Origin: an uncultured Clostridia bacterium
Lineage (GTDB): Bacteria; Bacillota; Clostridia; Christensenellales; Borkfalkiaceae
Reading direction: 5' to 3'
Length of the DNA stretch: 64,000 nucleotides
NCBI GenBank assembly: GCA_947624005.1
Contig: CANQHV010000007.1
Coordinates: forward strand, 2,059-66,058
The translations under genes and the position numbers were made by a program. This document shows positions 2,709 to 5,269 of this stretch, one piece after another (position 1 is the first letter of the stretch; each line of letters begins with the position of its first letter). Under the pieces are notes generated by a model. That model was not told where the DNA came from and ran no database searches. It was given only the letters and a program-made list of their open reading frames with translations.

Positions 2709-3686
2709 TTACTTATTTTCAGCCGCCTTTTTTGCCTCTTCCACTCTTTCACATTCAATCTCATAAACTTCCGAGCCGTTGAGCACAACGGGAACCTCTT
2801 TACCTTTTTCATATTTATCGGTATTTACGACAATATCATATACATTCCCACCAGGTACATTCGCTTGATAGGTTATAACATCAGTAACGGCAACATCAAC
2901 ATCTGTTTCAAATGTAAATATTTGTTTAGTATGTTTATTTTTAAGTAATGCATAAAAGTCAAATATATAATACTCTAGATTTTGCCAATTATTAGGTTCT
3001 GTCAATCCCGCGACTATTATTTCATAATCTTCGCCGACCAATTTTTTAGTCATTGCTTCCAGCAATTCGGGATTAGTTTCATAAGTTTCCACACCTTTAT
3101 TGTAATTACGTCCAACAATTTTAAAAAGTGACTTATTTGCTTCTAATATTTCTTCCGAAGTTATTTCATCTATATTATCAGCATGTATTGTTGAAAATCT
3201 ATAAGCATAAGTAGCACCATTTTCATTATTGTTCTTTGCAACACAAGCAAATCGACCGTTGTCAATATATATCGAAATTATCTCAATTAAATCGCGGTCA
3301 GTTTTGTTAATTTCTGCAAGTCGTGTTTTAAGCGCGTCAACAATATCCTGATAGGCGTTTATAAGTTCATTATCGCCGTCGGTATCCCCGTCGGAATCTT
3401 GCCCGCTCTGTTCGCCTTGCTGTTTGTCGTCGGTATTACCGCCGTTACCGTTGTCACCCTTATTATCTTCGCCCGAATCTTTATTGTCGTCTTTATCCTC
3501 CACGTCAGGCTGTTCGTCTTGATTGTCGTCTTTGCTGTCTGATGGAGAATTATTTTCTTCGGTGGTCGGAGTTTGGGGCGTAGTTTTTGACGGGTCGGGC
3601 GTATTTTCGCCGCAAGCCGCAAGCGAAAATAGCATACAAAAAGCCGCAATCAAAGTTAAAATAACGCTTAAAAATCTGAATTTCAT
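2709..3686 (-). CDS. hypothetical lipoprotein with an acidic low-complexity linker
   Basis: Start set at the ATG at 3686, preceded by AGGAGA. Signal peptide MKFRFLSVILTLIAAFCMLFSLAAC has an L-A-A-C lipobox. A D/N/E/G/K-rich linker follows, then a globular C-terminal domain I do not recognise. Confidence 0.7.
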   Translation of the reverse strand: MKFRFLSVILTLIAAFCMLFSLAACGENTPDPSKTTPQTPTTEENNSPSDSKDDNQDEQPDVEDKDDNKDSGEDNKGDNGNGGNTDDKQQGEQSGQDSDGDTDGDNELINAYQDIVDALKTRLAEINKTDRDLIEIISIYIDNGRFACVAKNNNENGATYAYRFSTIHADNIDEITSEEILEANKSLFKIVGRNYNKGVETYETNPELLEAMTKKLVGEDYEIIVAGLTEPNNWQNLEYYIFDFYALLKNKHTKQIFTFETDVDVAVTDVITYQANVPGGNVYDIVVNTDKYEKGKEVPVVLNGSEVYEIECERVEEAKKAAENK

Positions 3687-3706
3687 ACTATCTCCTTTGT
3701 GCGGCG

Positions 3707-3896
3707 TAAAAAAATAAGGTGTGCTCCCGAAAGAGCACACCGCACGGTATCTCTTACGGTTACCACACCTTCAATACAATTTTCGTTAGCCGAAATTTTT
3801 AATATCAAAAGAGATACACAATGCCAGATTGTGTATTTCGACCAACGGGTATGCACAGAGCAAAATGCCTTGCGATTTGTATTGAAAATGTGGTAA
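3707..3896 (-). promoter_or_regulatory. structured 5' leader (riboswitch/attenuator-like, class not recognised) ending in an intrinsic terminator
   Basis: On the minus-strand RNA, rc(3877..3896) pairs with rc(3760..3779) in a 20-bp closing helix with 2 G.U pairs. There is an internal 9-bp hairpin (3814..3822 with 3828..3836). A terminator, ggtgtgctc (3718..3726) paired with gagcacacc (3733..3741), is followed by UUAUUUUUUU and ends about 12 nt before the lipoprotein RBS. Confidence 0.45.
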
Positions 3897-3900
3897 TAAA

Positions 3901-3930
3901 AATATATCACTTCGGGGGTAATTTTGTCAA
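3901..3930 (-). promoter_or_regulatory. sigma-A type promoter driving the leader and lipoprotein gene
   Basis: On the minus strand: TTGACA (rc of 3925..3930), 18-nt spacer, TATATT (rc of 3901..3906). Confidence 0.5.
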
Positions 3931-3963
3931 GCGGCTGACGGAATTATTCGCGGCAAGCAAACA

Positions 3964-3990
3964 GCCGCGGGGCGGAAGTCGCCCCGCGGC
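3964..3990 (-). terminator. GC-rich hairpin, second of two hairpins downstream of the PLP-enzyme gene
   Basis: gccgcggggcg (3964..3974) pairs with cgccccgcggc (3980..3990) around a 5-nt loop. These are the same 11-mers as the arms of the 2632..2660 hairpin, in swapped order. The U-tract is weak. Confidence 0.4.
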
Positions 3991-4007
3991 ATATTAACGC
4001 GCGCCGA

Positions 4008-4042
4008 TATTTAAAATGCGCAGGCTTTATATAGGCCTGCGC
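4008..4042 (-). terminator. intrinsic terminator of the miaB-mutS-mutL-miaA-PLP enzyme operon
   Basis: gcgcaggc (4018..4025) pairs with gcctgcgc (4035..4042), 6 nt after the stop codon. On the minus strand it is followed by AUUUUAAAU. Confidence 0.55.
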
Positions 4043-4048
4043 GAAAAA

Positions 4049-5269
4049 TTATTTTAAAAGTTTGTTTAGTATGCGGGTTAATGCGTATTTGCCGTGTTCA
4101 TAGGTAAGCCCGCCCTGAAAATACGCAATGTACGGCGGTTTGACGGGTCCGTCCGCCGAAAGTTCGATTGACGAACCGCCGACAAACGTGCCCGCCGCCA
4201 TTATTATTTTGTCGTCATACCCCGGCATATCCCACGCCTCGCAATCGACAAAGCCGTCTACGGGCGAAGCGTGCTGTACTTCGCGTATAAAATTTATCAT
4301 TTTTTCCGCGCTGTCGAATTTTATCGCGCGCGTTATGTCGTGCGGCGTTTTATCAAGCGACGGATAATTTTCGTAACCGAGTTCGCCCATAGCCATACCT
4401 ATAAGCAGACTGCTTTTAAGCGCCTGCGCCACGGTGTGCGGCGCCATAAACAGACCTTGATAATAATATTGGTATCCGTACGCGTAAGAACCAACTTCAA
4501 GACCTATCGACGGAGCCGTCAGACGTTTGCCGATAAGATTTATATACTTCTCTTTCCCGCAGATATAACCGCCCGTGGGCGCAAGCCCGCCGCCCGCGTT
4601 TTTTATGAGCGAGCCGACGATAACGTCTGCGCCGACCTCGGTCGGTTCGCGCGTTTCGACAAATTCGCCGTAGCAATTGTCCACAAAAATACAGCCTTTA
4701 AAGCCGTTTTTGCGCAAAAAGTCGCACAAAACGCCTATTTGTTCGCACGAAAGCGCGTCGCGGAGTTCGTACCCCCTCGACCGTTGCACGTAAACCGTTT
4801 TGGGCTTTTCGGCAAGCCGTTCTTTTATCGCTTCAAAGTCGAAATCGCCGTCTATAAGGTCGCAGTATCTGAACGTAATGCCGAAATCTTCAAGCGTGCC
4901 GTCGCCTTTTCCGCTTATTACGCCGCGCAAAGTATCGTAAGGCTGACCCGTTACGCATAAAACAATATCGTTCGGGCGCAAAATGCCGAAAAGCGCCACC
5001 GTAAGCGAGTGCGTGCCCGAAAGCAGGTGCGGCGAAACTATTCCGCTTTCCGCGCCGAACGCGCTTGCGTACAATTTGCCAAGCGTATCCCTGCCCTCGT
5101 CGCCGTAACCGTAACCCGTGGTGCCGTTAAAGTGCCGCGCGGCTACTCGGTGCTCGGAAAAGGCGTTTAAAACCTTTTTCTGATTGAAATGCGCGATATT
5201 TTCTATTTCTTTGAATTTTTCCGAAAGCTTACTTTCGCACTCTTCGATAAATTTTTCGTTATCAGTCAT
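4049..5269 (-). CDS. Cys/Met-metabolism PLP enzyme of the YnbB / 'aluminium resistance protein' (methionine gamma-lyase-like) family
   Basis: 406 aa. The overall sequence resembles the YnbB family that commonly follows miaA(-hfq) in Firmicutes. Overlaps the miaA stop by 8 nt. Confidence 0.7.
   Translation of the reverse strand: MTDNEKFIEECESKLSEKFKEIENIAHFNQKKVLNAFSEHRVAARHFNGTTGYGYGDEGRDTLGKLYASAFGAESGIVSPHLLSGTHSLTVALFGILRPNDIVLCVTGQPYDTLRGVISGKGDGTLEDFGITFRYCDLIDGDFDFEAIKERLAEKPKTVYVQRSRGYELRDALSCEQIGVLCDFLRKNGFKGCIFVDNCYGEFVETREPTEVGADVIVGSLIKNAGGGLAPTGGYICGKEKYINLIGKRLTAPSIGLEVGSYAYGYQYYYQGLFMAPHTVAQALKSSLLIGMAMGELGYENYPSLDKTPHDITRAIKFDSAEKMINFIREVQHASPVDGFVDCEAWDMPGYDDKIIMAAGTFVGGSSIELSADGPVKPPYIAYFQGGLTYEHGKYALTRILNKLLK

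Follow-up and report, generated by a model that had tools for sequence, protein, structure and literature searches.

Does the DNA ahead of a predicted lipoprotein gene in an uncultured gut bacterium encode a structured RNA that controls the gene and, if so, what kind of control element is it? This question is raised by one locus in the window, by which we mean the whole stretch of DNA that was analysed, 64,000 nucleotides in length; unlabelled positions count from its first letter.

The structured leader and its helices

The structured leader upstream of the lipoprotein gene is real, and its features lie at the positions listed in Table 1. The leader is 189 nt long, and the minus strand from 3930 to 3708 holds its promoter, the leader itself and an intrinsic terminator, the U tract of which ends 9 nt ahead of the ribosome-binding site (RBS) AAAGGAG. 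No Pfam domain was found in the 325-aa lipoprotein. The leader promoter is of the sigma-70 type, near consensus and the top promoter-like site between 2500 and 5500. Two terminator hairpins lie behind the upstream gene, which encodes a methionine-gamma-lyase-like enzyme (PF06838) and stops at 4049, and we therefore infer that the leader has a promoter of its own. Transcript initiation is predicted at about 3897-3893 from spacing only. The sequencing runs that matched the window were rabbit gut DNA metagenomes, with no RNA run among those listed; without transcript data, the start site, a terminated species and read-through all remain predictions.

Table 1 Positions of the promoter, leader elements and regulated gene in the window copy
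Feature	Positions	Strand	Remarks
-35 box TTGACA	3925..3930	minus	read from the sequence; equivalent boxes precede other copies; 18-nt spacer between TTGACA (3930-3925) and TATATT (3906-3901)
Extended -10 box TG-a-TATATT	3901..3909	minus	11/12 promoter positions matched, TG present
P1 5' strand UUACCACAUUUUCAAUACAA, 5' end of the leader	3877..3896	minus	helix kept with unrelated sequences in divergent copies
Side hairpin at the junction above P1	3854..3874	minus	minimum-free-energy fold; this copy and orthologue L017 only, not family-wide
P1b 5' strand	3835..3847	minus	pairs with 3796-3784; minimum-free-energy fold
P2 hairpin AUACACAAU-CUGGC-AUUGUGUAU	3814..3836	minus	6/7 modelled pairs changed on both sides
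X1, proposed anti-antiterminator strand GGCAUUGUGUAUCUCUU, apical region	3809..3825	minus	pairs with 3755-3742
P1b 3' strand	3784..3796	minus	overlaps the UUUCG-GCUAA-CGAAA hairpin
P1 3' strand UUGUAUUGAAGGUGUGGUAA	3760..3779	minus	pairs with 3896-3877
24-nt switch block GGUGUGGUAACCGUAAGAGAUACC	3746..3769	minus	pairs upstream (P1 5' strand and X1) or downstream (terminator sequence)
X', AAGAGAUACC followed by GUGC	3742..3755	minus	partner of X1; in the alternative state, 5' strand and loop of the inner antiterminator hairpin
Antiterminator, alternative fold	3718..3769	minus	GGUGUG:CACACC, CCG of the linker:CGG of the terminator loop, X':terminator 5' arm
Intrinsic terminator	3708..3741	minus	hairpin GGUGUGCUC-UUUCGG-GAGCACACC at 3741-3718, then UUAUUUUUUU with the U tract at 3717-3708; -16.5 kcal/mol; compensatory changes at 9/9 pairs
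RBS and start codon of the lipoprotein gene	3684..3698	minus	AAAGGAG at 3698-3692, ATG at 3686-3684
Regulated gene	2709..3686	minus	325-aa lipoprotein, lipobox LAAC, acidic low-complexity linker

Folding of the minus strand from 3905 to 3700 (206 nt) with RNAfold gave -76.7 kcal/mol, compared with -42.6 ± 4.3 kcal/mol for 200 dinucleotide shuffles (z = -7.95), none of which equalled the native fold. The two strands of the 20-bp helix P1 are 90% complementary, and the two exceptions are U.G pairs on the minus strand. P1b was seen to be altered on both strands in the orthologue L017 when the sequences were read by eye.

A preliminary description of this locus, made from the sequence alone, had proposed most of these features. 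Its TTGACA-18-TATATT promoter held, as did the claim that the leader has its own promoter, which is also supported by the start of the P1 5' strand 5-8 nt past a -10 box in 35/36 relatives. The 20-bp helix with two G.U pairs on the minus strand held as well, and the 9-bp hairpin with a CUGGC loop is P2, at 3836-3814. The terminator was confirmed, with its distance to the RBS corrected to 9 nt from the proposed 12 or so. A small UUUCG-GCUAA-CGAAA hairpin held only in part: it is present in the sequence, but its 3' portion belongs to P1b in the minimum-free-energy fold and it is not a conserved element. That description missed this lack of conservation, as well as the multi-copy family and the long-range X1:X' pairing reported below.

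The claim that the functional molecule is a minus-strand RNA also held. Across copies of the leader, the P1 domain folds better in the sense than in the antisense orientation in 34/35 cases (means of -52.8 and -44.0 kcal/mol, respectively), and it contains 182 G.U pairs on the sense strand versus 63 on the antisense strand. The two U.G pairs, formed by ACAUU with GGUGU, recur in every consensus copy. From this strand bias in folding and G.U pairing we conclude that the constraint acts on RNA.

A multi-copy family with four covarying helices

The leader is one member of a multi-copy and, as far as we could establish, undescribed family of leader RNAs or RNA switches. A BLAST search with a 236-nt query against the genome assembly that contains the window (1.22 Mb, 18 contigs, 77% complete) found nine other places at 72-95% identity, and nhmmer confirmed 10 copies in this genome. 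A broader covariance model added two more (C1:230962-231109 and C3:108014-108160), for a total of 12; both have the family layout with quite different helix sequences. Summed contig depth in metagenomes was 10- to 40-fold higher over the conserved blocks, as expected for a repeat. Weak nhmmer matches at three contig ends belonged to an unrelated repeat and are not leaders, and a match to the X1 pattern at C9:1547 was rejected since the leader architecture was absent.

The copies that we compared share one order of elements. A sigma-70-type promoter comes first, then 5'-UACCACAU and a rod that varies between copies; CACAAU-loop-GGCAUUGUGUAUCUCUU follows and, after another variable segment, GGUGUGGUAACCGUAAGAGAUACC-(A/G)UGC. 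The terminator and its U tract come next, ahead of the RBS and gene. The conserved blocks are 5'-UACCACAU, GGCAUUGUGUAUCUCU, the switch block and the terminator, and the rod between them varies in both sequence and length, the leader interior spanning from about 100 to about 220 nt. Nine of the copies in this genome share the same X1 and the same X'. Two leaders (C13:20257-20394 and C5:23476-23594) are without a gene; a second promoter and leader come next. A YUGAAUAW bulge following P1 seemed to be present in many copies; it was dropped as a motif after its AAUA equivalents were found paired inside P1 in the window copy and in copy C13a.

Covariation supports four helices: P1 at the 5' end of the transcript, P2, the long-range pairing X1:X' (GGCAUUGUGUAUCUCUU with AAGAGAUACC-NUGC) and the terminator. 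The alignment used here (A3, 36 sequences) was fitted to the model and its copies are related, so the shuffle statistics overstate the support. For P2, the X1:X' core and the terminator taken together, 93.4% of cells in A3 are paired, compared with 35-56% when the partners are slid by 1-3 columns, and 22/23 pairs are changed at both positions. Such double changes were counted in 138 cells, against 31 ± 6 in shuffled alignments, and this count was reached in none of 500 shuffles.

The X1:X' pairing has a 9-pair core in which 92% of cells are paired and 8/9 pairs are changed on both sides; its duplex energy in the window copy is -14.0 kcal/mol. Changed pairs can be read directly from the alignment in L023 (UGCACUUU with AAAGUGCA), L029 (AUGUCUU with AAGACAU), L036 (GUAUCCUU with AAGGGUAC), L044 (GUGUUUCU with GGGAAACAC) and the same-genome copy C5:23250 (ACCUUUUUGG with CCAAAAGGU). 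The helix extends as GCAU:AUGC, replaced by GCAA:UUGC in L020, L035 and C5:23250, which brings it to 13 pairs with 88% of cells paired. The U of GCAU (column 33) shows covariation with its partner in P2 as well, suggesting that P2 and the extension of X1:X' are alternatives. In divergent copies, such as L023 and the same-genome copy C3:108014-108160, X1, X' and the 5' arm of the terminator change together.

In 35/36 copies, P1 pairs the beginning of the leader, 5-8 nt past the -10 box, with the segment immediately ahead of the switch-block linker, with a mean of 15.6 contiguous pairs. Other species retain the helix with sequences that are unrelated (GCUUAAUACCUGAA with UUCAGGUAUUAAGC, for instance). 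The strong sequence conservation of the blocks among paralogues can be explained by each nucleotide having two alternative partners; read this way, the leader illustrates how nucleotides with two partners are frozen in sequence while helices with a single partner drift.

The distribution of the family was analysed with two models, R1 built from the ten same-genome copies and R2 from 36 diverse hits. R1 matched in 13/24 other species of the genus and, in a family-wide draw, in 22/151 genomes belonging to 8/23 genera; it found no match in 16 other families, each sampled by one genome. R2 located copies in four other families of the order as well, with the GGC loop, X1, UGUGGUAAC, X' and the terminator. 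An exact pattern scan of 185,579 species genomes returned 67 loci, 64 of which were confirmed by the model; pattern matches in Flavipsychrobacter and in a gammaproteobacterial metagenome-assembled genome (MAG) were not. In total, the analysis located roughly 150 copies. Public records bearing the motif are labelled uncultured Clostridia bacterium (rabbit 'Lapin' MAGs), uncultured Christensenella sp. and Candidatus Borkfalkiaceae bacterium (mouse), and the sources are rabbit and mouse gut.

Alternative pairing, the proposed switch and its rivals

The switch block can pair with the terminator sequence as well as upstream. When the segment that begins with GGUGUG at 3769 and closes with the terminator hairpin at 3718 is folded in isolation, it forms one long hairpin of -26.0 kcal/mol and not the terminator (-16.5 kcal/mol). 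The isolated segment adopts this antiterminator as its minimum-free-energy fold in 26/35 copies; the antiterminator keeps at least 4 outer pairs in 34/35 and is more stable than the terminator alone in 30/33 unique copies; it is poor in a few (L035, L025 and L044). Cognate switch blocks average -22.8 kcal/mol, and non-cognate ones, borrowed from copies whose terminator differs, -16.2 kcal/mol. When only the inner antiterminator is scored, in a fixed register, 15 cells are changed on both sides, a value matched by 19/500 shuffles and thus only weakly supportive; its per-sequence energies give a clearer result, with a mean z of -2.3 against shuffled arms. The preliminary suggestion that a second GGUGUG might compete for the CACACC of the terminator therefore held, this pairing forming the outer helix of the long antiterminator hairpin, which divergent copies also retain. 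Its further claim that lipoprotein expression requires read-through is supported by retention of the terminator, with compensatory changes at every pair, even though transcription itself has not been shown.

With P1 retained in the full leader of the window copy, the best nested fold containing the terminator (OFF) and the best one containing the inner antiterminator (ON) lie 0.8 kcal/mol apart, and in about half of the 35 copies the gap is no more than about 1.2 kcal/mol. Given this near-balance, and an X1:X' helix of -14.0 kcal/mol that nested folds exclude, X1:X' can decide the outcome. Three generic hallmarks of an attenuator are present: a G+C-rich hairpin with a U tract between promoter and RBS, a mutually exclusive antiterminator, and an upstream element that sequesters it. 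It is therefore likely, in the absence of transcript data, that the region is a cis-acting transcription attenuator composed of a terminator, an antiterminator and an anti-antiterminator.

We propose that the switch would work as follows. The sigma-70-type promoter would start the 189-nt leader, the first nucleotides of which would form the long helix P1. At the apex of the rod, the pyrimidine-rich X1 would be displayed beside hairpin P2, and the 24-nt switch block, directly 3' of P1, would then have two mutually exclusive partners. In the putative OFF state, the 5' half of the block would lie in P1 and its 3' half (X') on X1, forming a pseudoknot-like long-range helix; the 5' arm of the terminator would be left with only its own 3' arm, and termination would occur at 3717-3708, before the RBS. 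In the putative ON state, X1 would be occupied or hidden, so that X' would take the terminator 5' arm, the next segment to emerge, and form the antiterminator. Opening of the base of P1 would add GGUGUG:CACACC, and the polymerase would continue into the surface-protein gene. Transcription would produce X1 and P1 ahead of the terminator, and X1:X' outweighs the inner antiterminator in stability; termination is therefore inferred to be the likely default. The geometry places a condition on the OFF state: a fully formed straight rod would put X1 20-30 bp from X', with a linker of about 5 nt, and we therefore infer that the rod must bend back, at an internal loop or junction, for X1:X' and P1 to coexist.

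Induction would require an as yet unidentified factor that occupies or hides X1 and the apical region; the input could be a protein, a small ligand or a physical cue. On balance we lean towards a protein or some other factor acting on the apical region, rather than a small ligand, because nearly every nucleotide changes together with its partner between subtypes, even within one genome. Among candidate proteins, the leader's own genome (77% complete) encodes one NusG homologue, and hence no LoaP-like paralogue, and no CAT_RBD (BglG-type) domain was found in it. An ANTAR search of the same genome gave no match, but its controls were also not detected.

A rival reading at the level of DNA is that of an inverton, a phase-variable segment bounded by 20-bp inverted repeats, or of an inverted-repeat element that spreads as a mobile unit. 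Known invertons share several traits with this locus, namely an inverted repeat and a position before the surface-protein genes of gut bacteria, and the 20-bp repeat is indeed present in many copies ahead of such genes in a gut bacterium; moreover, inversion would make X1 a copy of X'. Against this, the mismatches between the arms are G.U on the sense strand, with the strand bias in folding and pair counts given above, and the same two U.G pairs occur in all consensus copies, which points to constraint on RNA. In contigs from four independent metagenome samples, both inverted-repeat arms were crossed in the reference orientation, with no strand-switch joints; contigs hide rare variants, and rare forms are therefore not excluded. 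BLAST found no copy with an inverted interior in the genome, and no recombinase gene flanks the locus. Together these observations all but exclude the inverton reading. Another rival is a small-molecule OFF riboswitch. Its aptamer would be built from P1, the apical region and the X1:X' pseudoknot, and stabilisation of this aptamer by a metabolite or second messenger would lead to termination ahead of surface-protein genes. c-di-GMP riboswitches control adhesin genes in other Clostridia, which makes c-di-GMP one candidate ligand. In favour of this reading are the classical architecture, with the P1 3' strand and the pseudoknot strand doubling as an antiterminator strand, the many copies per genome ahead of surface proteins, and the presence of 2-3 GGDEF proteins in the 77% complete genome without a c-di-GMP-I or -II riboswitch. 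No universally conserved unpaired core that might serve as a ligand pocket was seen when the consensus type was compared with C5:23250, C1:230962 and C3:108014, however; the supposed aptamer interior varies from about 100 to about 220 nt, and conservation of the blocks can be explained by their two alternative partners. We consider a riboswitch unlikely.

Two further rivals are less likely than the riboswitch. X' followed by NUG could be a decoy RBS that mimics a Shine-Dalgarno sequence and start codon, so that a ribosome or 30S subunit would cover the terminator 5' arm and cause read-through, with X1 as an anti-Shine-Dalgarno strand. In the window copy, AAGAGAUACC-GUG does look like an RBS region, for instance the AAGGAGAUACC-AUG ahead of L017's gene; in most subtypes, judged by eye, AUG, GUG or UUG lies 4-7 nt beyond a purine-rich X', and in copies C7, C8 and C1 a 20-codon frame closes with a UGA that overlaps the main AUG. 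This frame is not conserved, however: it has 5 codons in C12 and runs out of frame into the gene in C11a, C11b and L017, and the start codon is absent in L034, L042, L043 and L023. NUGC is already accounted for by its pairing with GCAN of the P2 loop, with compensatory changes, and an RNA-only antiterminator exists and covaries; a decoy RBS is thus very unlikely. Equally improbable is that the leaders act in trans, as stable terminated RNAs of 150-270 nt that carry X1 in a loop and pair with X' or the RBS of other members or of other mRNAs, so that the surface-protein genes would be regulated across loci. The identity of X1 and X' in nine copies and the two gene-less leaders speak for it. On the other side, cis pairing is always available and faster; X1 is no more complementary to the RBS regions of leader genes than to a background set of 468 such regions (percentile ranks 0.05-0.69), and no antisense partner of X1 was found elsewhere in the genome.

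Two smaller ideas were also rejected: a leader peptide or uORF as a conserved feature, as neither frame nor stop is kept, and X1 as a translational lock on the RBS of its own gene, for which complementarity did not exceed that background.

Comparison with known systems is consistent with the attenuator reading being new at the level of the family and not of the mechanism. The preliminary description had matched the leader to no known riboswitch class and considered its T-box likeness superficial; both statements held. Of the checks it had named, an Rfam search was run and matched no family, and the covariation check in relatives found the helices conserved and covarying. Searches with Rfam 15 found nothing at the gathering score in the window, nor over the leaders in 20 loci with divergent copies. 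The best hit in 3600-4100, and the only one at E ≤ 10, was sbrA, which matched the terminator only (E = 0.027; 22.6 bits against a gathering score of 45). Full-text searches (conserved words, Borkfalkiaceae, Christensenell* with structured RNA, and structured-RNA surveys) returned no description of this leader RNA. It is therefore likely that the leader represents a new family of a known type of mechanism, the transcription attenuator.

By analogy, its logic is closest to that of terminator-type OFF riboswitch platforms and of three-layer attenuators such as those controlled by PyrR. SAM-I, FMN and related riboswitches are terminator-type OFF platforms. Like them, the leader is a 5' element with its own promoter in which the antiterminator draws its 5' strand from the 3' side of the closing helix P1 and from a strand of a pseudoknot, in competition with an intrinsic terminator. 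Unlike them, it has no Rfam match, no universal ligand-pocket nucleotides that we could see and no known ligand, its interior is a rod of very variable length, and it occurs in 10-12 copies per 1.2-Mb assembly ahead of surface-protein genes. The Bacillus pyr attenuators depend on PyrR and comprise an anti-antiterminator, an antiterminator and a terminator. The leader shares these three layers and the sequestration of the antiterminator strand by an upstream element, leading to termination. It differs in lacking, by eye, a motif like the PyrR-binding loop, in preceding surface-protein and not pyrimidine genes, and in having as its anti-antiterminator a long-range loop-to-tail pairing held by a 20-bp rod.

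The T-box (RF00230) resembles the leader in its long 5' rod, a conserved UGGUA block just before the terminator and antiterminator, its occurrence in Firmicutes and its multiple copies. RF00230 gave no match in 3600-4100 even at E ≤ 10. In contrast to the T-box, the UGGUA of the leader is not free for tRNA, being inside P1 and paired with the leader's own 5' UACCA; other copies have GCAAC, GGCGAC or GAGCAAG in its place, with a matching 5' strand, and the genes encode lipoproteins and large surface proteins rather than aminoacyl-tRNA synthetases or amino-acid functions. The c-di-GMP-I and -II riboswitches found before clostridial adhesin and pilus genes are likewise multi-copy terminator leaders, with a pseudoknot in class II. 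Neither c-di-GMP-I (RF01051) nor c-di-GMP-II (RF01786) matched in the window or the whole genome (E ≤ 0.01).

Surface-protein genes behind the leaders

The association of the family with surface-protein genes, including those for BspA-type LRR lipoproteins and giant MBG/DUF6273 proteins, is shown by the genes downstream, and the order of promoter, leader, terminator, RBS and gene is constant. Among 100 leaders from many genomes, 82 directly precede an ORF. The products of 74 of these 82 ORFs start with a hydrophobic signal or membrane segment, 46 have a lipobox, and 5 begin with a zinc ribbon. At least three protein families, unrelated to one another, are represented downstream in the window's own genome: the window lipoprotein; BspA-type LRR_5 proteins of 403, 1162 and >747 aa, the last with an N-terminal zinc ribbon; and giant DUF6273 and MBG proteins of 1103, >1280 and 1760 aa. 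Scanning of ten further downstream proteins identified LRR_5 in six and DUF6273 in one, and no domain in the other three.

Uncultured Christensenellales-like Clostridia are common inhabitants of the gut and, to our knowledge, how they control their surface has not been established. The leader precedes a large share of their predicted adhesin-like proteins, with up to a dozen copies in a small genome. We infer from this that the family probably defines a regulon and a single control point for attachment to host or particles. A bolder reading, which is possible and no more, is that these leaders form a sensory RNA class of their own, acting as riboswitches or bound by an RNA-binding regulator devoted to them. 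If so, one shared pseudoknot-gated attenuator would turn the entire adhesin-like surface repertoire of Christensenellales-type gut bacteria on or off in answer to one signal, and the variable length of the rod would set a threshold specific to each gene. For RNA biology, the family provides a well-supported orphan structured RNA, with four covarying helices and a proposed three-state switch, that is directly testable.

As a separate observation, a few copies precede genes of other kinds, for example C3:108014.

Tandem leaders and the genes they precede

Two tandem arrangements of the leader, the attenuator RNA, were identified in the window's own genome (loci L011 and L012). The first unit of each tandem comprises a complete promoter, leader and terminator without a gene. 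A second promoter and leader starts 100-350 nt downstream of this unit and is followed by a giant surface-protein gene. In the tandem on contig C5, the second leader belongs to a divergent subtype in which every helix is changed.

The leader regulon is not purely composed of surface proteins, since leader copies L020 (genome G005) and L035 (genome G014) precede a gene for a 79-aa membrane protein (MVIANIISYVLVLIGALNWGLYG...) that is not adhesin-like, and the own-genome copy at C3:108014 lies upstream of a gene encoding a cytoplasmic-looking protein. The leader-regulated lipoprotein of the window carries an acidic, low-complexity linker (~90 aa, rich in D/E/N/G/K) C-terminal to the lipobox. No Pfam domain was found in this lipoprotein, and its C-terminal 220 aa are uncharacterised.

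Positions of leader-associated features and repeats (C, contigs of the window's own genome; L, leader loci across genomes)
Feature	Position or loci	Strand	Remark
Tandem pair 1	C13:20257-20394, then C13:20746-20874		Own genome
Tandem pair 2	C5:23476-23594, then C5:23252-23370		Own genome
Lipoprotein gene	Window 2709-3686	-	Leader-regulated
Conserved leader blocks	Window 3708-3775, 3810-3843
Post-terminator stretch	L050, L052, L053, L058, L064, L072, L077, L108, L109		Terminator-to-ORF gap ~110-130 nt
Post-terminator stretch	L065, L071, L076, L079, L089, L095		No ORF called
Contig-end repeat groups	C3, C10, C11, C16, C17; C1, C12, C18; C8, C13, C15, C17		Own genome

A conserved stretch beyond the terminator

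Several other species have an additional conserved stretch 3' of the leader terminator, upstream of the giant-protein ORF. Its approximate order is ACCACGUCAUCUGA, a GC hairpin and CAGAGAACCUCUCUUAAGCUUGCC, and it contains a CUCUCUU resembling X1, the pyrimidine-rich apical strand of the leader. This stretch might represent a second regulatory module.

Assembly breakage and other repeats

Contig depth, summed at the conserved leader blocks, was 10-40x the flanking value in four gut metagenome assemblies. Numerous short contigs break at these blocks; the leader repeat therefore fragments assemblies. Leader copy numbers counted in MAGs are probably underestimates.

At least three further repeat families are located at contig ends of the own genome, none of them related to the leader. 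These families are probably multi-copy elements, such as insertion sequences, that interrupted assembly. One of these families includes ...ggtgaattatcataacaagtgcaacgggtgagggtaaaaaag...
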